The notes under the pieces: model-generated
Database searches by the model: none
The model's input: only the letters and a program-made list of their open reading frames with translations
Told to the model about the DNA's origin: nothing
Shown: in pieces, positions 215-29,483 of the stretch
Position numbering within the stretch: position 1 is the stretch's first letter
Layout: every line of letters begins with the position of its first letter
Position numbers and translations under genes: made by a program
Source: Thermoplasmata archaeon
GTDB lineage: Archaea > Thermoplasmatota > Thermoplasmata > Lutacidiplasmatales > UBA184
NCBI GenBank assembly: GCA_035502455.1
Contig: DATJUI010000015.1
Coordinates: forward strand, 50,249-114,248
Direction: 5' to 3'
Length of the DNA stretch: 64,000 bases

Positions 215-439
215 CTACGTGCCGCGCTTGCGGCGCATGTACCGGGTCGCGTACCCGGCGATTCGGTTGGCGAGCTTCTTGTGCGTGACCTGGATCTTCC
301 CGTCGACGACGACGCCGAGGTCGGTCAGCTCGAGGACCTTCTGCTTGTTCTTCGCGAAGTCGCCCGAGAAATCGTTCGGATAGTGACGGATCAGCTCGAT
401 CGCGACCCGCTTGATGTACGTCTGGCGGATGTTGCCCAT
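215..439 (-). CDS. rps17e: 30S ribosomal protein S17e
   Basis: The C-terminal 74 aa of minus ORF 215..1066 (MGNIRQTYIKRVAIELIRHYP...KKLANRIAGYATRYMRRKRGT) match the archaeal S17e family. ATG at 437-439; the upstream part of the listed ORF is GC-driven read-through. Confidence 0.85.
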   Translation of the reverse strand: MGNIRQTYIKRVAIELIRHYPNDFSGDFAKNKQKVLELTDLGVVVDGKIQVTHKKLANRIAGYATRYMRRKRGT

Positions 440-463
440 GCGGGGGCGCGGACCCAGGTGCCG

Positions 464-470
464 TTTATAA
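464..470 (-). promoter_or_regulatory. TATA box (TTATAAA on the minus strand) about 25-31 nt upstream of the rps17e ATG
   Basis: AT-rich TTTATAA island in otherwise 70% GC DNA at canonical archaeal spacing for a leaderless transcript. Confidence 0.45.
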
Positions 471-653
471 CCGTAGCTCTCCCGCCGGTCGTTCCGCCTC
501 GTGCGGGGGCCGCCGTCGCCGGCCCGGCCGGCCGTTCGGCGGAACGCACAAATACCCAGCCCTGGGTAATTGTTGACCGTGCGCAACGGCGGAGCCGTCC
601 GGGGGGGCTCCCGGTCCGGGTAGGACCGGCTCTTCGGACCCCGCGCGCGGTCG

Positions 654-2165
654 ATGCCGGACGACACAGCTTCCTCCAACCCTGTTCCCGCACGGGAACG
701 GAACGTGCTCCTGCTCGACCTTTCGAAGAGCATGCTCGCCCCGCTGCCGGACTCGGAGAACGGGTCGTCGGTGGAGCGGCAGAAGATCGAGGTCGCCCGC
801 ACCGCGGTCTTCCAGATCCTGCAGGACGCGGTGAACGCGAGCTCGCTGTTCGGCCTCGTGACCTTCACCGAGACGGTCCGGGTCCCCGTGCCGCTCGGCG
901 AGATCCACCGGGAGAACCTCCCGTACATCGAGAACCTGATCGCGCTCCTCCAGCCGAGCGGCCGGTCCGCCATCTGGGACGCCCTGGCCGTCGGCGCGGA
1001 CCTGCTGCGGTCGGGGACGAACGGGGTCCGCGGCAACCTCGTGCTCGTCACGGACGGCTGGGACAACGCGTCGACGCGGTTCGACGTGCGCGCGAAGCCG
1101 GACGCCGCGCTCGGCGCGGGCCGGGTCGACCTGGTCCCCTACGTCCTGCCGGCGAACTCGAAGGTGACGCTGCGGATCATCGGGATCGGCAGCGGCGCCG
1201 AGCGCGACAAGGGCGTCGACGTCGGGCGGATGGGCCAGTTCCTCGAGCAGATGAACGGGCGCGCGTCGTCCCTCGGGCTCCCGGCCGCGTTCACCTTCCA
1301 GGAGGTGACGACCGGCGGCCAGCTGTTCGCGCAGATGGTCAACGCGTTCGTCGACGTCGGCTACGACGACGACGCGCCGATCGAGGACCTCCATCCCGAG
1401 GAGCTCGCGCGCCACGCGGCGAACGCCGCGCGGGCGCTCAAGGAGCCGCAGCAGCACGCGACGGTCGCCAAGATCCACGCCGGGGCGCCCGCGTCCCGGG
1501 CCGACCCGGACACCACGTTCTCGGAGGCACCCGACCTCGAGGTCGACGTCGTCGCGACGGCGACCCACGGGGGCGCCCCGATCTCGCTCAAGGAGCGGTA
1601 CGGTCCGCTCGGCGAGGTGATCGAGGCGTACCAGGCCGGCGACTTCGACACCGCGCTCCAGTTGATCGGTCGGACCCAGGGCGTGGTGCCGCCCGTCACC
1701 CGACTCTACTGGGAGGCCCGCATCCAGTACGCCCGGCGCGCGATCGTCGAGGCGGCGCGCGCGCTCCTGCAGGCGTGGACCGAGGCGGAGAAGCTGCCGC
1801 CGGCGACGCAGGCGCGGATCCTGCGCCGGCTCGCGCTGCTCCAGGCGCGCATGCAGAACGACAAGGAGACGGAGACGCTCGTCCGGTTCATCGACGAGAC
1901 GGAGCACCGGCTCGGCAACGGCGACCCGAAGGGCCGCGAGCGGCTCATGGACCTGTTCACGAAGCTGATGGAGCTGCGGGGAACGTACCAGCTCACCCAG
2001 CTCGCCGGCGAGGGCGACCTCCAGGACGCCGCCTTAAAGCACGAGGCGGCGGTCGAGGAGGTCTTCGGCCTCCTCCAGGACGCCCGCCTCGACCTCTCGT
2101 CGTCCGGCTCGGTCGTCGAGGGGGCGCTCGACTTCATCGAGATATGCCTCGCGGAGATGCGGTAG
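654..2165 (+). CDS. von Willebrand factor A (vWA) domain protein with a helical C-terminal region
   Basis: N-terminal MIDAS signature (VLLLDLSKSM ... GRSAIWDAL ... LVLVTDGWDN), i.e. the DxSxS...T...D metal-site pattern of vWA domains. The C-terminal ~250 aa are predicted helical. Confidence 0.8.
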   Translation: MPDDTASSNPVPARERNVLLLDLSKSMLAPLPDSENGSSVERQKIEVARTAVFQILQDAVNASSLFGLVTFTETVRVPVPLGEIHRENLPYIENLIALLQPSGRSAIWDALAVGADLLRSGTNGVRGNLVLVTDGWDNASTRFDVRAKPDAALGAGRVDLVPYVLPANSKVTLRIIGIGSGAERDKGVDVGRMGQFLEQMNGRASSLGLPAAFTFQEVTTGGQLFAQMVNAFVDVGYDDDAPIEDLHPEELARHAANAARALKEPQQHATVAKIHAGAPASRADPDTTFSEAPDLEVDVVATATHGGAPISLKERYGPLGEVIEAYQAGDFDTALQLIGRTQGVVPPVTRLYWEARIQYARRAIVEAARALLQAWTEAEKLPPATQARILRRLALLQARMQNDKETETLVRFIDETEHRLGNGDPKGRERLMDLFTKLMELRGTYQLTQLAGEGDLQDAALKHEAAVEEVFGLLQDARLDLSSSGSVVEGALDFIEICLAEMR

Positions 2166-2175
2166 GGAGAACGGG

Positions 2176-3342
2176 ATGCCCGCGGTGAAGGTGACCACAC
2201 GGACCCGACGCCCGGCCGGCGCGAAGCGCGAGATGAAGCGGGGCCCGGACACGGCGCGGATCGCCGTCGTCGGGATCCCGGCCTCGGGCAAGACGACGTA
2301 CTTCAGGTTCCTCTCGGGGCATTTCGGGCTCAACCTGCCGATCCTGTACATCCCGGCCCGGGTCGACAACGGGACGATGCCGCTGTACGGGGACCTCGAG
2401 AACGACGTCGCGCTCGAGGAGACGACGTACGAGACGACCGACCCCACCGACCCCGAGGGGAGCCTCGAGACGACGACCCGGTACTACGTCAATCGGCCGA
2501 TGGAGGACCGGCGCAAGCTGTGGGTCGAGCTCTCGGCGGGCCGGGAGGACCAGGGGATCCTCACGAAGTACCCGCTGCCGACCAAGTTCAACCAGTTCGT
2601 CGAGATGAAGCTCCGCTTCCGCTACGGGGCCGCCGACGGCGACGCCGGCTCGCGGCCGATGGAGCTGCAGACGATCGACGAGGCGGGCGGGATCATCGCC
2701 GACTACTTCACCTACGATCGGCTCTGGCTCGACTCGACCGACGCCGAGGTCTCCGAGAAGTCGTGCCGGGTGATCCCGCACTTCGACTCGTGGCGCCCCG
2801 ACCGCCGGGACCTCTGGCGCCGCGGGCTCACCCTGCTGGGACGGTTCGTCCAGGAGGCCGACGCGATCATCCTCCTGCTCGCCCCCGGGCTCCCGTCGCT
2901 GCGCGACCAGGCCCAGCAGGTCAACCTCGCCCGCGGCGTGTTCCGGTACGTCCGGGCCCGCAACCTCCCGCTCGTCATCGCGATCTCGAAGTCGGACAAG
3001 CTCAACGAGTTCTACGGCGAGGTCGAGCAGTCCGTGCGGGACCGCACGTTCCGCAGCGCGTTCGATCCCGTCGACTTCCTGCTCCGGCGCGACGGGGCCG
3101 GGATGGGCACGATCCTCGTCGCCCAGGAAGGGCGGGGGATCTCGGTGAAGGAGGACGTCTACCTGATCGCGTCCGCGGTCTCGACCGGCGAAGGGCACCC
3201 GCTGTTCATCGGCGAGACCGGTCAGGAGGCGCCGACGTCCGGCACGACCACGCTGGGGGTCCCCGTGATGGTCAACACGACCCTGCCGCTCGCGCGCGCC
3301 TGCGAGCGGATCCTCGCGCTCCGCGCGACCAAGGGGTCGTGA
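2176..3342 (+). CDS. Divergent Ras-like small GTPase (P-loop NTPase) with a long insertion between G1 and G3
   Basis: G1 GIPASGKTT, G3 IDEAGG (DxxG), G4 AISKSDK (NKxD variant SKSD) and G5 ASAV in canonical order. It starts 10 nt after the vWA gene, and its stop overlaps the next start (ATGA). Confidence 0.7.
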   Translation: MPAVKVTTRTRRPAGAKREMKRGPDTARIAVVGIPASGKTTYFRFLSGHFGLNLPILYIPARVDNGTMPLYGDLENDVALEETTYETTDPTDPEGSLETTTRYYVNRPMEDRRKLWVELSAGREDQGILTKYPLPTKFNQFVEMKLRFRYGAADGDAGSRPMELQTIDEAGGIIADYFTYDRLWLDSTDAEVSEKSCRVIPHFDSWRPDRRDLWRRGLTLLGRFVQEADAIILLLAPGLPSLRDQAQQVNLARGVFRYVRARNLPLVIAISKSDKLNEFYGEVEQSVRDRTFRSAFDPVDFLLRRDGAGMGTILVAQEGRGISVKEDVYLIASAVSTGEGHPLFIGETGQEAPTSGTTTLGVPVMVNTTLPLARACERILALRATKGS

Positions 3343-6332
3343 TGGCCGCGGCCGAGCCGCGCGCCGTCGGGACCCTCGCGCCGATCGCGGTCGTCTGGTG
3401 CCGGCAGGTCGACAACGAGGCGGAGAGCCCGGGCTACACGACGATCCCCGAGGAGTTCCCCGGCCGGCGGGACACCCTGGAGACGATCCGGCACGTCGGG
3501 AACCTCACGATCAACGTCGCCGACACCCACGACTACTGGGACCCCGAGCCCGGGCAGACGCTGTCGTACTACCCGAACCTGTTCCTGTACCCCACCGCCG
3601 GCGGACGTCACATCTGCGTCGGCCGGATGTTCCTCTCCACCGAGGACCGCCCGCGGCTCGGGATGAAGACGCTCGTCTTCGACACCGCCACGCTGGTCGA
3701 GTCCGGGGACTTCGGCGGGGCCCTCCTGCGCGCCCACGCGACGATGGGGTCGAGGTCCGAGGGGCCGCGCAAGGCGGAGGCCGAGCCCGACCCGTCCGTG
3801 ATCGCGGCGGTCGGCGAGGGGTTCCTCTTCCACCGCGGCTCGACCGAGGCGGTCGTCCTCGTCGCCGCCGAGCAGTGGGAGGCCGCCAACCGGGTGCTCG
3901 CCGAGCTCGTGCGGCGGCTGCCCGTCTCGCTCGTCGCCCTCGGCGCGTTCCTGTCGTTCCCGTACTTCCTGCCCGAGGCGAAGGTGAACCTCCACGAGTT
4001 CACCGAGTCGCTGCCGCTCGCGCTGGCGATCATGCGCGTCCCCCGCGGCGAGGCCCAGGGCGAACGGCACGCGAAGCGCCTGTCGAGCTGGGAGGCCGGC
4101 CCCGTCGCGGTCCGCGACCTCACCCGCCCGTCGCCCGGCCGCGCGAAGGAGACCCTCCCGACCGTCCTCCAGTACGTCCGCGACCACGCCGACGACAAGC
4201 TCGCGGAGATCGCCCGGCGCGTCGATCTCGTCGAGCTGCCCCGCCTGCGCTCCTCCGGGACGGATCCCGAGCACCAGACCGGCCGCGACCGGCGCAAGGA
4301 GATGTGGCGGATCGGGACGGCGATGGAGACCGCCGCGCTCCTGATCGCGCGCCCGAAGGGCCGGACCGTGCCCGTGAGCGCCGACGCGAGCCGGCGGGCG
4401 AACGAGTACCTGCGCGCCCGTCCGGCCGACGGCGTCGGCCCGGTCGAGCCGACCGCGCCGCCCCCGCTCGATCTCCCCGCCCCGGCGGCGTCGCCCCTCG
4501 TCGCCCAGCTCCCGCCGTGGCTGCAGCGGCCGGCCGAGGTGACGCTCCCGCCGGCCGGCCCGGTCGCCGTGCCGGTGTCGATCAGCGACGACCCGTCGCT
4601 CCAGCGCAATCCGGCGCCGCCCGCCGTCGCGAGCGGCCCGACCCCGGGCGCCCCGCCCGGGGCGAACGACCCCGACCTCGAGGCCTGGCTCCGCCGGGAG
4701 GTCGAGGCCCGGTTCCAGGAGCTCAGCCGCGCGCTGCCCCCGAGCCCCGGCACCGCCGCCTTCGAGCAGCGGATGCAGGAGCTCGGCCGCGAGCTCGAGT
4801 CGAAGTGGACCCGGGCCCTCGAGACCCGGGTGCGCGAGGTCGCCGAGGTCGAGGCCCGGGCGATCCTGTCGCTCCAGCACGACCTCTCGGGCCGGCTCAA
4901 CGCCGTGGAGGCGCGGCCGGTCCCCGTGCTGCCGCCGAGCGCCGACGAGACAGCCCAGCAGATCCGCACGGCCGTCGAGGCGCGGGCGCAGCTGCTCGCC
5001 GAGACGCTGCGCGAGAGCGTCCGCCAGTCGAGCGAGATGTGGGCGGCCGCGCTCAAGCTCGAGCTCCACCGGTCCGTCGACGAGCTCGCGGCGAAGTCGG
5101 CCCGCTCCGAGGAGGAGCTCCGCGCCGGCCTCGTCGCCCAGCTCGACCTCGAGCTGCGGGAGACGAAGGAGCAGGCGACCGCGCTGCGCGAGGAGGTCGA
5201 AGGGCGGGTGCGCGACCTCCTCAACGAGCGGTGGAACGAGATCGACCAGCGGCGCCAGAAGGAGGTCCGGGACGTGGAGCAGCGGCTCACGCTCCTCTCC
5301 GACGGGCGCGCGAAGGACCTCGAGGCGAAGCTGACGTCGATGATCGCCGCGGAACGGGAGCGCACCCAGGCCGCCTTCGAAGAGCGGGTCCAGGCCGCCG
5401 AGCGCCGGCTCGCCGTCGAGCAGGAGTCCCGGGCGACCGAGGTCTCCGAATCGCAGGGCCAGTCGCTCGCCGGGTTCCAGGTGAGGATGCAGGCGTTCTT
5501 CGAGCAGAAGCTCCGGGAGAACCAGGAGCGGGAACGCGAGAAGTACGTGGAACTGCTCGCCCGCTTCAAGGGCGAGGTCGACTCGGCCCTCGGCCGCACG
5601 ATCGACTCGACCAAGTTCGACGCGGCCGTTCGGGAGCGCGTCGCGCGCGTCCTGGACGCGGCGCGCGCGGACCAGGAGAAGACGATCGCCTCGCGCGTCA
5701 CCGACGCCGAGGTCCGCCTGCGCTCGGCGCAGGAGGAGGCCGCGCTGCGGCTCGAGCGGGTCGAGTCGAAGCTCCAGCAGCGGGAGACCGACCTCGCGCG
5801 CATCGAGCGGTCGGTGCGGCACGACGCGGAGGAGATCGAGCGCCGGGTGCAGGTGCTGACCGACCGGATGCTGCCGCTCGTCCGCAAGACGTGGCTCAAG
5901 GTCGGCGAGCTCGAGAAGGCCGGTCCGATCCCGGGCGACGTCGAGGCCCGGACCGAGGCGATCCGGCGGGAGATGACCCGCGAGCTGCGCCGCATCGAGG
6001 GCGAGATGCTCGAGCAGACGACGGAGCTCCGCGACCGGCTCGAGACCACGATCTCCCAGCAGGGCCGCATCTGGCTCAACTTCGTCCACCAGCTCGCGGA
6101 GGCCGGCGCGAACCTGATGCCGGCCGATGCGTCGAGCGGCCGCTCGTCGCGCCGGCTCGCGCCGCGGCCGAACCTCGGCCGCGCCGAGGACGCGGACGTC
6201 GACCTGCGGGCGACCGCCGGGGTCGACGCGTTCGCCGAGGACCCCGCGAACCCGCTCGACCCGGATCCGCTCGCCGATCCCGAGGCGGGCCGGGACGTCC
6301 GCCGCCGCAGCCGCCCCCGGACGGGCGGCTAG
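3342..6332 (+). CDS. Large (~996 aa) protein: globular N-terminal region, Pro/Ala-rich linker, ~450-aa coiled coil
   Basis: Internal ATG at 3342 overlaps the upstream stop, so the listed ORF 2520..6332 is over-extended at the N-terminus. Residues ~480-930 are continuous heptad-like charged, Ala/Leu/Glu/Arg-rich sequence (EARAILSLQHDLSGRLNAVE... ELRAGLVAQLDLELRETKEQ...). Confidence 0.7.
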   Translation: MAAAEPRAVGTLAPIAVVWCRQVDNEAESPGYTTIPEEFPGRRDTLETIRHVGNLTINVADTHDYWDPEPGQTLSYYPNLFLYPTAGGRHICVGRMFLSTEDRPRLGMKTLVFDTATLVESGDFGGALLRAHATMGSRSEGPRKAEAEPDPSVIAAVGEGFLFHRGSTEAVVLVAAEQWEAANRVLAELVRRLPVSLVALGAFLSFPYFLPEAKVNLHEFTESLPLALAIMRVPRGEAQGERHAKRLSSWEAGPVAVRDLTRPSPGRAKETLPTVLQYVRDHADDKLAEIARRVDLVELPRLRSSGTDPEHQTGRDRRKEMWRIGTAMETAALLIARPKGRTVPVSADASRRANEYLRARPADGVGPVEPTAPPPLDLPAPAASPLVAQLPPWLQRPAEVTLPPAGPVAVPVSISDDPSLQRNPAPPAVASGPTPGAPPGANDPDLEAWLRREVEARFQELSRALPPSPGTAAFEQRMQELGRELESKWTRALETRVREVAEVEARAILSLQHDLSGRLNAVEARPVPVLPPSADETAQQIRTAVEARAQLLAETLRESVRQSSEMWAAALKLELHRSVDELAAKSARSEEELRAGLVAQLDLELRETKEQATALREEVEGRVRDLLNERWNEIDQRRQKEVRDVEQRLTLLSDGRAKDLEAKLTSMIAAERERTQAAFEERVQAAERRLAVEQESRATEVSESQGQSLAGFQVRMQAFFEQKLRENQEREREKYVELLARFKGEVDSALGRTIDSTKFDAAVRERVARVLDAARADQEKTIASRVTDAEVRLRSAQEEAALRLERVESKLQQRETDLARIERSVRHDAEEIERRVQVLTDRMLPLVRKTWLKVGELEKAGPIPGDVEARTEAIRREMTRELRRIEGEMLEQTTELRDRLETTISQQGRIWLNFVHQLAEAGANLMPADASSGRSSRRLAPRPNLGRAEDADVDLRATAGVDAFAEDPANPLDPDPLADPEAGRDVRRRSRPRTGG

Positions 6333-6364
6333 GCTAAGCCCGCGCCCGCGCTGCCCGCGGCCCC

Positions 6365-6553
6365 GTGACCGTTCCCGACGACCACCGGCACTGCAAGGTC
6401 TGCGGACGGGCGTGCGCGCCGGAGTCCGAGACGTGCAGCCGGGCGTGCGCCCAGCGCCGGGCCGACCAGCTCCAGACCCGCCGGATGTACAGCTACCTCA
6501 TGTATGGCGCGATCGCGCTCCTGGTCATCGTGCTGGTCTCGCACTACCTGTAG
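6365..6553 (+). CDS. Small zinc-ribbon protein with a C-terminal transmembrane helix
   Basis: CKVCGRACAPESETCSRAC (CxxC...CxxxC) followed by a hydrophobic tail YLMYGAIALLVIVLVSHYL. Short, so uncertain. Confidence 0.4.
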   Translation: MTVPDDHRHCKVCGRACAPESETCSRACAQRRADQLQTRRMYSYLMYGAIALLVIVLVSHYL

Positions 6554-29362: not shown

Positions 29363-29382
29363 CGCGGACGGAGCCGGCGACA

Positions 29383-29457
29383 CGGGCGCGGAGGGATTTG
29401 AACCCTCGACCGCCGGGTTAGGAACCCGGTGCCCTATCCAAGCTAGGCTACGCGCCC
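29383..29457 (-). tRNA. tRNA-Arg (anticodon CCU), CCA not encoded
   Basis: Cloverleaf: acceptor GGGCGCG/CGCGCCC, D-arm GCCT-AGCTTGGATA-GGGC, anticodon stem CCGGG/CCCGG with loop TTCCTAA, variable CGGTC, T-arm GAGGG-TTCAAAT-CCCTC, discriminator G. T-rich stretch downstream. Confidence 0.85.
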
Positions 29458-29483
29458 GATCCCGTCCGACCCTCGGCGGGTTA

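Follow-up and report, generated by a model that had tools for sequence, protein, structure and literature searches.

A conserved VWA, GTPase and long helical protein gene string in Lutacidiplasmatales-like archaea, with a candidate GTPase partner as its third product

What does a 996-amino-acid (aa) protein with a globular head and a very long helical region do directly behind a P-loop GTPase gene in an archaeon, and where does its gene begin? The question is raised by a 64,000-nt stretch of the Thermoplasmata archaeon contig DATJUI010000015.1 (the window, in what follows, at its full length), in which the gene occupies positions 3342 to 6332. We find that it starts at ATG 3342 and is the last of three consecutive genes, which encode a von Willebrand factor A (VWA) domain protein, a divergent GTPase and the 996-aa protein. 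At roughly even odds (about 50%), our preferred reading is that the 996-aa protein is a regulator or effector of the GTPase fused to a scaffold, its gene standing third in a conserved string and being translationally coupled; the head of the protein probably regulates the GTPase encoded just upstream. The observations are best explained by a cytoplasmic protein composed of this head, a Pro-rich linker, a non-heptad rod, a C-terminal helical module and a charged tail. Literature searches returned no description of the family, and as far as the literature searched goes, the family and the three-gene module are undescribed.

The start of the gene had to be settled in DNA of about 73% G+C, where long open frames are common in several registers. 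The six-frame open reading frame (ORF) runs from a GTG at 2520 to 6332 on the plus strand (1270 aa). It begins 345 nt inside the GTPase gene and overlaps that gene with its first 822 nt, in a different frame; the figure of 820 nt in the initial annotation fits the length of this overlap. Over 2520..3341, the G+C content (GC) at codon positions 1/2/3 is 0.98/0.67/0.46 in this frame and 0.66/0.47/0.97 in the frame of the GTPase gene, while 3342..6332 gives 0.77/0.50/0.98, and all real genes of the window have a third-position GC of 0.93-0.98. Of the 274 residues of the translated extension, 67 are Arg, 41 are Pro and 36 are Gly. Neither the aligned set nor a representative-protein search contained a homologue with the conserved N-terminal extension in this frame that would have spoken against a start at 3342; 22/22 aligned homologues start at the Met of position 3342, continue with about 12 variable residues and then reach an invariant PVAVVWCRQVDNEAESPGYTTIP. 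The alternative that the ORF from 2520 is real and encodes a 1270-residue protein overlapping the GTPase gene out of frame has in its favor an open frame with a GTG as its first codon. Set against the third-position GC of 0.46 versus 0.97 for the same DNA, the Arg/Pro/Gly-rich, low-complexity character of the extension, its absence from every homologue and the ordinariness of multiregister open frames at 73% GC, this alternative can practically be dismissed. In other frames of 3222..6337, counting both strands, the real gene is overlapped by four ORFs that each exceed 800 aa. One of them, the antisense ORF 3608..6079, has a third-position GC of 0.98 because it has its third codon positions in common with the real gene; it was nonetheless rejected on its inverted first/second-position pattern (0.48/0.77) and on homology. 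Third-position GC by itself is insufficient to choose the coding strand in this genome.

The junction between the GTPase gene and the 996-aa gene is itself conserved. GTG 3339, where the reading VMAAAEPRAV begins, and ATG 3342 are the only in-frame start codons near it. The sequence runs AAGGGGTCG TGA TGG, so that stop and start share 1 nt (TGATG) and do not form the ATGA overlap first described; the only possible 4-nt overlap is GTGA, by way of GTG 3339. The same 1-nt T[GA]ATG overlap occurs in 61/78 related loci and ATGA in 5/78, with stop and start 0-5 nt apart in most of the remainder, and a purine-rich AAGGGG/AAGGAG lies 6-10 nt upstream in this comparison. The T[GA]ATG overlap recurs in loci L086 and L089. 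Codon-position GC, the candidate starts, the homologue N termini and the conserved overlaps together give strong support to ATG 3342 as the true start, at the upstream stop, as had been proposed. The start is already in use in public annotation, because the product of the GenBank metagenome-assembled genome (MAG), TPA hypothetical protein VMG99_05535 (Thermoplasmata archaeon, 996 aa), is 100% identical to the 3342 model over 100% of its length. The charge of overextension therefore holds for the six-frame ORF and not for the GenBank entry.

The three genes form a string of narrow distribution and strong conservation. In a scan of one genome per GTDB species, relatives of the 996-aa protein were present in 152 species, and 80 loci were listed. 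Nearly all of the latter are labeled as Thermoplasmata/Thermoplasmatota MAGs of soil and peat origin, with “Ca. Lutacidiplasma silvani” among them; the exceptions are one locus labeled only “bacterium” and one from Methanobacteriota. Lutacidiplasmatales have a GC content of ∼69% and genomes of ∼2.1 Mb (PMC9287336). At an E value of ≤1e-3, 333 homologues were found, mostly 980-1010 aa long. When the N-terminal domain (N-domain) was searched with HMMER against 1.84 billion representative proteins, just 46 clusters emerged, with credible matches all at ≥37% identity; the family is therefore narrow, without detectable distant relatives. The order VWA gene, GTPase gene, 996-aa homologue was found in all of the ∼80 genome loci with enough flanking DNA and again in six more divergent lineages, in which N-domain identity is just 36-54%. 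The GTPase is the most conserved of the three products (78-91% identical to that of the window in nearly all loci of the main clade); full-length matches to the VWA protein reach 52-83%, the head of the 996-aa protein 65-79%, and its C-terminal helical module 35-64%, rarely higher. The module is single-copy per locus and, in most lineages, is fixed beside the S19e-L39e-L31e-aIF6-S17e genes; in L083 and L086 these ribosomal neighbors are absent, while the three genes and the downstream string with a DUF2116 gene persist. The string is vertically inherited in Lutacidiplasmatales-like Thermoplasmata, and the identities point to strong purifying selection on all three genes and a housekeeping character.

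The product of the second gene has the ordered motifs of a GTPase: G1 GIPASGKT (residues 33-40), G3 DEAGG (168-172), G4 SKSD (271-274) and a G5-like SAV (333-335). These are invariant in 15 orthologues (60-91% identity) and in four further lineages, except that G4 reads SK[SA]D family-wide, with Ser replacing Asn/Thr. By its ordered G1, G3 and G4, the protein is classed as a GTPase of TRAFAC-class type. No Pfam GTPase family scored above its cutoff on the window protein or its orthologues, and the family was therefore left unassigned. Subthreshold matches comprise ATP_bind_1 (GPN-loop) and AAA_18 at the P-loop, positions 111-151 of the GTP_EFTU profile on residues 253-300 (the G4 region) and, among PDB profiles, Der and FeoB (E values of 0.06-1), likewise at the P-loop; the segments matched are those expected for a GTPase. 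Pfam DO-GTPase2 (PF19993) matched 4/15 orthologues, mostly at the P-loop only, with a best score of 15.6 bits (E value of 0.013) against a cutoff of 27. G1 and G3 are unusually far apart, at ∼125 residues. The segment between them (residues 41-167, with EETTYE, TTTRYYVNRPMED and LTKYPLPTKFNQFVEM) is invariant and had no match to any family; it may be switch I or a partner-binding insert.

The first gene encodes a protein that matches Pfam VWA_2 at 37.8 bits (cutoff of 27) and VWA at 30.2 bits (cutoff of 23.8). Its metal ion-dependent adhesion site (MIDAS) is intact (D22-L-S24-K-S26, T70/T72, D134) and invariant in the alignment; by profile and DxSxS motif, the product is assigned as a VWA/MIDAS protein. 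Codon-position GC is 0.72/0.44/0.97. A longer ORF at this place, 281..2188 (plus strand, 635 aa, GTG), was rejected as a frame artifact with a third-position GC of 0.49. Transmembrane segment prediction found none in the VWA protein, the GTPase or the 996-aa protein.

The head (residues 1-362) contains 9 His and 2 Cys, and with that many His residues the earlier description of it as Cys/His-poor does not fit. Its structure was predicted confidently with a deeper alignment: with 14 close homologues, AlphaFold2 gave a mean predicted local distance difference test (pLDDT) score of 45, and with 42 sequences, including members of 36-46% identity, it gave a model (m4f073d720f59) with a pLDDT score of 88.2 and a predicted template modeling (pTM) score of 0.89. 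In this model, the first subdomain has the strand and helix order of a longin domain, beta-beta-alpha-beta-beta-beta-alpha-alpha, with a strand at 16-21, a short strand at 31-32, a helix at 42-57, strands at 74-76, 81-85, 90-99 and 105-114, and helices at 115-120 and 124-134. Its invariant loops are 14-36 (WCRQVDNEAESPGYTTIP), 58-72 (NvADTHDYWDP) and 98-110 (LSTEDRPRLGMKT). An alpha/beta subdomain follows (helix 151-162, strand 170-175, helix 179-192, strand 202-206, helix 217-223, strand 226-232, helix 240-251, strand 255-259) and then an all-helical one (helices 274-280, 284-305, 314-336 and 347-358). As published, the DENN module opens with a longin domain, continues with an alpha/beta three-layered DENN domain and closes with an all-alpha d-DENN domain (PMC3521125), and the predicted subdomains of the head come in this order. 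After its longin-like part, the model places four beta-alpha units (170-259) before four helices (274-358), and the published DENN core sheet is five-stranded (PMC3521125). A Foldseek search of 350,542 PDB chains placed 7mge_C on top (E value of 1.9e-3, probability of 0.38, TM score of 0.17, 421 columns), with a match that spans the full length; the entry is the C9orf72-SMCR8-WDR41-ARF1 complex, and Foldseek does not name the subunit that chain C represents. Weak longin matches (E values of 0.3-0.8) include the Lokiarchaeota Roadblock-Longin structure 8yqg (0.32) and Lst4 4zy8 (0.66). A longin-like head is supported by the topology of the model, while a DENN-like head is a lead rather than a finding; the suggestion that residues 1-330 might hold a longin- or GTPase-activating protein (GAP)-like fold is borne out as to the longin order, with weak structural matches.

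In addition to the conserved gene order and the translational coupling, a connection between this head and the GTPase is suggested by a natural exception. In locus L084 (Logan SRR21169165 contig, 2067..6242), the VWA gene (MIDAS DLSRS) and the homologue of the 996-aa gene (P0156) are intact, and a 156-bp spacer stands in place of the GTPase gene. No GTPase-like sequence was found anywhere on the 9.2-kb contig, and L084 is the only locus of ∼88 without a GTPase gene between the two. The other 41 aligned sequences agree without exception at 44 head positions, and P0156 was compared with them there. Changes were found at 19/44, of which 17 fall in loops 14-36, 58-72 and 98-110, that is, at 17/26 positions in the three longin loops versus 2/18 elsewhere (Fisher P = 5e-4). 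In the model, the three loops sit at one end of the longin sheet. Three homologues at a comparable distance that keep the GTPase gene (P0154, P0155 and P0148, 36-45% identity versus 36% for P0156) have only 0-5 of these positions changed. The catalytic pocket of longin-type GAPs is the beta1-loop-beta2 segment, with W33-D34 and G38-P39 in C9orf72 (PMC12290439), and the equivalent segment of the head, VVWCRQVDNEAESPGYT, is the most conserved in the family, with invariant W19, R21, D24, N25, P30 and G31. The loop decay in L084 ties the head loops to the GTPase in a suggestive manner and falls short of proof.

Several results weigh against a longin/DENN-type regulator of the adjacent GTPase. No PDB chain in the Foldseek search matched the head at an E value of ≤1e-3, and viral predicted structures in BFVD gave equally weak, chance-level matches, to ATPases and to proteins without a name. 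The ATPase matches fit the published remark of a minimal P-loop-like alpha/beta topology in the DENN core (PMC3521125), but they also show that scores this low do not decide the matter. Pfam at an E value of ≤10 produced nothing relevant for 10 diverse N-domains, a PDB sequence-profile search with the N-domain at an E value of ≤10 produced 0 matches, and hhalign of the family alignment to human C9orf72 (481/481 identical to the PDB entry) returned a probability of 0.2%; no sequence or profile link was found between the head and DENN, longin, folliculin, SMCR8 or C9orf72. The beta1-beta2 loop reads PG where longin GAPs have GP (PMC12290439). The evidence from L084 is one 9.2-kb contig, whose genome could carry the GTPase gene at another place; a metagenome scan for further GTPase-less loci of the P0156 type confirmed none. 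The GTPase, finally, is far from the Arf, Rab, Rag and MglA families known to be regulated by longin/DENN proteins. Other family searches were also negative: Pfam with the whole 996-aa protein at an E value of ≤0.1 gave no match, NCBIfam nothing meaningful, and PADLOC no family, its best matches being ZorA and PtuA at chance level (E values of 0.007-0.04).

Beyond the head, the protein is largely as the initial annotation had outlined it, with two corrections. The linker is rich in Pro and Ala, and the string quoted for it occurs verbatim at residues ∼379-444. A motif within it, PPWL...VPVSxSDDPS, is conserved in the main clade (invariant P391, W393, L394, P403, P411, S413 and D417). As a GTPase-binding element, this PPW motif was considered and rejected, being absent in 18/152 members, some of them linked to a GTPase gene. 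The long stretch described as rich in Glu, Arg, Ala and Leu agrees with the composition of residues 446-925 (15.4%, 14.0%, 12.5% and 11.7%, respectively, with 10 Pro and few Gly), and composition and periodicity together suggest that it is helical. It does not behave as the canonical coiled coil expected of it: hydrophobic periodicity peaks at 3.6 (z = 7.9) and 3.75 (z = 7.1) and is nil at 3.5 (z = -0.1), and the best heptad register has an a/d enrichment of only z = 3.3 versus shuffles. The rod may be either a noncanonical (hendecad/pentadecad-like) coiled coil or a set of surface-seeking amphipathic helices; a precomputed match to Apolipoprotein (PF01442) exists for one homologue. Tandem duplications in the rod, of 15, 19, 37, 45 and 56 residues, spread the lengths of family members over 556 to 1323 aa. 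The duplications are lineage specific, with periods of 37, 56/15, 45, 15 and 19 in P0015, P0037, P0095, P0140 and P0006 (window residues ∼520-680), and an “EARP” turn punctuates some of the units. The shortest and most divergent members (P0148-P0156) keep only the last ∼130 residues of the rod (RMLPLVRKTWLK...QGRIWL), the conserved C-terminal module, which tblastn detected in the loci and whose Q-G-R-x-W-like motif is present in 142/152 members. The tail is acidic in part: an acidic patch (EDADVDL, DPANPLDPDPLADPE) is present, and a basic end (RRRSRPR) follows it, for a net charge of -1. Its invariant positions are P968, N970, P971, P974 and R988. Table 1 collects the coordinates.

Table 1. 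Coordinates of the three-gene string, its parts and the adjoining genes in the window
Feature	Position	Strand	Remarks
Ribosomal protein S17e gene	215..439	-	Divergent from the module
Gene 1, 503-aa VWA-domain protein	654..2165	+	ATG ORF; ∼300-aa helical C-terminal part
Gene 2, 388-aa divergent P-loop GTPase	2176..3342	+	
Spurious 5′ extension of the six-frame ORF	2520..3341	+	Noncoding in this frame
Translational-coupling junction	3331..3344	+	Purine-rich AAGGGG 3331-3336, stop TGA 3340-3342, start ATG 3342-3344
Gene 3, 996-aa protein	3342..6332	+	Stop TAG 6330-6332
Predicted N-terminal peptide from ATG 3342			(M)AAAEPRAVGTLAPIAVVW
Predicted longin-like subdomain, residues 14-135	3381..3746	+	AlphaFold2 model
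Predicted alpha/beta subdomain, residues 150-262	3789..4127	+	AlphaFold2, block pLDDT mostly 90-97
Predicted all-helical subdomain, residues 263-362	4128..4427	+	Includes invariant GRDRRKEMWRIGTAMETAALL
Pro-rich linker, residues 363-445	4428..4676	+	29% Pro, 16% Ala
Glu/Arg/Ala/Leu-rich amphipathic helical region, residues 446-925	4677..6116	+	
Conserved C-terminal helical module, residues 790-925	5709..6116	+	RMLPLVRKTWLKVGELEK ... LRREMTRELRRIEGEML ... QGRIWLNFVHQL
Low-complexity charged tail, residues 926-996	6117..6329	+	Acidic patch, PNPLDP, basic RRRxRR end
DUF2116-like zinc-ribbon protein gene, 62 aa, possible fourth member	6365..6553	+	32 nt after the stop of 3342..6332

Three other accounts of the string were weighed. 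The 996-aa protein could be mainly structural, a cytoskeletal or membrane-surface scaffold whose head is an assembly or anchoring domain and for which the GTPase and the VWA protein only aid assembly. Amphipathic helix with a strong 3.6-3.75 period makes up about half of the protein, the length of the rod drifts by tandem duplication as in filament and spacer proteins, one homologue matches PF01442, and a small zinc-ribbon gene with a hydrophobic helix adjoins, all of which would suit a rod. Conservation points the other way, with the head (65-79%) and the GTPase (78-91%) far above the rod (35-64%); moreover, the shortest members (556-580 aa) are nearly rodless yet have lost neither the head nor the C-terminal module nor the GTPase gene, the invariant head loops decay where the GTPase gene is missing, and all three proteins are predicted to lack transmembrane segments. 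We consider this account unlikely. A further view is that the NTPase and the VWA protein form a chaperone pair that remodels or matures a large complex, possibly the ribosome, with the 996-residue protein as adaptor or substrate. An intact MIDAS VWA protein is encoded beside a P-loop NTPase, known NTPase-VWA pairs act as chaperones (PMC7159879), and the string adjoins S19e, L39e, L31e, aIF6 and S17e in most lineages. However, the NTPase has GTPase motifs (SKxD, DxxG) and not an AAA+ fold, the head has no link to ribosomal factors in the Pfam, NCBIfam and N-domain scans, and the ribosomal neighbors are gone in L083 and L086 while the three genes remain, so that the adjacency looks like plain synteny. 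This possibility appears very unlikely.

The three genes might also be related to the bacterial DO-GTPase/GAP1 conflict systems, either distantly or as a domesticated form, with the rod and tail serving as a sensor or effector assembled upon infection. The logic and gene order are the same, a GTPase followed by a partner with three globular subdomains; a Walker B Glu is conserved in DO-GTPases (PMC7159879), and DEAGG is invariant here; and weak, sub-threshold DO-GTPase2 matches were obtained in 4/15 orthologues. Some GAP1-N2 neighborhoods, in addition, include vWA genes and a GAP1 bearing a polar C-terminal extension. Against these resemblances, the best DO-GTPase2 score is well under the 27-bit cutoff and comes chiefly from the P-loop, no GAP1-N, GAP1-M or GAP1-C match was found in Pfam (whole protein at an E value of ≤0.1, N-domains at ≤10), and PADLOC assigned no family, ZorA and PtuA remaining at chance level. 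The published systems are mobile and have highly variable effector components (PMC7159879), whereas this locus is nonmobile, constant in chromosomal position, present in one copy and free of effector genes, with a GTPase of 78-91% identity across almost the whole main clade. A relationship to the conflict systems is, in our judgment, quite unlikely.

Downstream of the string, the 62-aa DUF2116-like protein has the pattern CKVCG...CSRAC followed by a C-terminal hydrophobic helix. In L002, L083, L084 and L086-L089, a DUF2116 gene immediately follows the homologue, including loci with different upstream neighbors, which may make it a fourth member of the module; the protein could be a membrane anchor for the module. 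Further downstream are a cytidylyltransferase-like gene, a 73-aa gene, a DUF5611-like gene and an M50 peptidase gene. On the other side, the 214-bp spacer between the S17e gene and the module (440..653) holds a TTTATAA box at 464-470 that may be the archaeal TATA element of one of the two divergent transcription units; a bacterial promoter and terminator scan was uninformative, the host being archaeal. The sole RNA gene detected in the window is a tRNA-Arg (CCT) at 29382..29458 (minus strand).

From the gene model, the operon, the conservation, the motifs, the predicted fold and the co-loss pattern, we infer how a GTPase regulator or effector fused to a scaffold might work. The head would bind the co-encoded GTPase through the three invariant loops of its longin sheet and would either control the nucleotide state, as a GAP or guanine nucleotide exchange factor (GEF), or read that state as an effector. 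The rod and the C-terminal module would oligomerize or lie on a surface and so provide a scaffold or output. The VWA protein may dock by its MIDAS site on an acidic motif, and a membrane tether for the assembly could come from the neighboring tail-anchored DUF2116 protein. A bolder version, that a non-Asgard archaeon possesses a complete longin-DENN-dDENN-type regulator, operon-wired to its own GTPase and to a MIDAS adaptor and fused to a non-heptad rod, is speculative and on balance doubtful; if it were true, the module would be a self-contained GTPase switch-and-scaffold machine, possibly at work on the membrane by way of the DUF2116 anchor, and the DENN-type architecture would be older than eukaryotes and Asgard archaea or would have two separate origins.

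The correction of the start is routine. The greater interest lies in a strongly conserved three-gene module of 5.7 kb in genomes of only ∼2 Mb, none of whose large proteins has been described and two of whose three have no recognizable family. If the head is a longin/DENN-like regulator, the module would offer a simple one-to-one operon pair of GTPase and regulator outside the eukaryote-Asgard lineage, and with it a tractable system for how longin-type domains read or drive GTPase switches and for the age of DENN relative to eukaryotes. The cell biology of the Lutacidiplasmatales, which are abundant in soil and uncultured, would become more accessible as well.

Among known systems, the eukaryotic longin-DENN regulators (DENND1B-type Rab GEFs and the GAPs C9orf72-SMCR8, folliculin-FNIP and GATOR1) resemble the head in its predicted longin, alpha/beta, all-alpha order. 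The best PDB structural match, below significance, is a chain of the C9orf72 complex with ARF1; the most conserved head residues lie at the beta1-loop-beta2 end, where the catalytic pocket of the GAPs is found; and the 996-aa gene is tied genetically to a GTPase gene. In contrast to these regulators, the head has no detectable sequence or profile similarity to them, its cognate GTPase would be a 388-aa divergent protein and not of Arf, Rab or Rag type, and it is fused to a helical rod of ∼480 residues and partnered with a VWA protein. The host, too, is a non-Asgard archaeon, whereas DENN and d-DENN have so far been described only within the DENN module and traced to the ancestral eukaryote (PMC3521125).

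The pairing of MglA, a small GTPase, with the Roadblock GAP/GEF MglB and the longin and Roadblock proteins of Asgard archaea provide a second parallel, an operon-encoded GTPase with a partner of the PAS-like longin/Roadblock fold. The proposed action is alike, with the edge of a sheet contacting the GTPase switch regions. Unlike MglB, the modeled head has the longin order and not the circularly permuted Roadblock order, and it belongs to a 996-aa partner that carries additional domains; by sequence, the GTPase does not resemble MglA. MglAB operons have been described as mobile (PMC3521125), whereas the three-gene string keeps its chromosomal place and is confined to one clade. The DO-GTPase/GAP1 systems (Kaur, Burroughs, Iyer, Aravind 2020) also combine a TRAFAC GTPase that has a Walker B Glu with a following, coevolving multidomain partner, and share with this locus the vWA genes found in some of them and the weak DO-GTPase2 matches. 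They differ in that the GTPase here is below the Pfam threshold and the string lacks GAP1 domains, effectors, mobility and a paralogous second GTPase, and in that its conservation is housekeeping-like.

The remaining parts have parallels of their own. NTPase-VWA/MIDAS pairs (MoxR-VWA, CoxD-CoxE, the magnesium chelatase ChlI-ChlD and midasin) likewise join a MIDAS VWA to a P-loop NTPase, with Pro-rich and acidic linkers in a partner, but their NTPase is AAA+ rather than GTPase-type, and the 996-aa third component has no counterpart there. The rod shares with hendecad/pentadecad coiled coils and apolipoprotein-like repeats the 3.6-3.75 period and tandem units (15, 45 and 37 residues, some Pro-punctuated); the 996-aa protein itself has no family-level sequence match. 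By its logic, the string would be a GTPase with an operon-encoded longin-type partner; what would set it apart is a possible DENN-like architecture, a non-heptad rod and a MIDAS partner.

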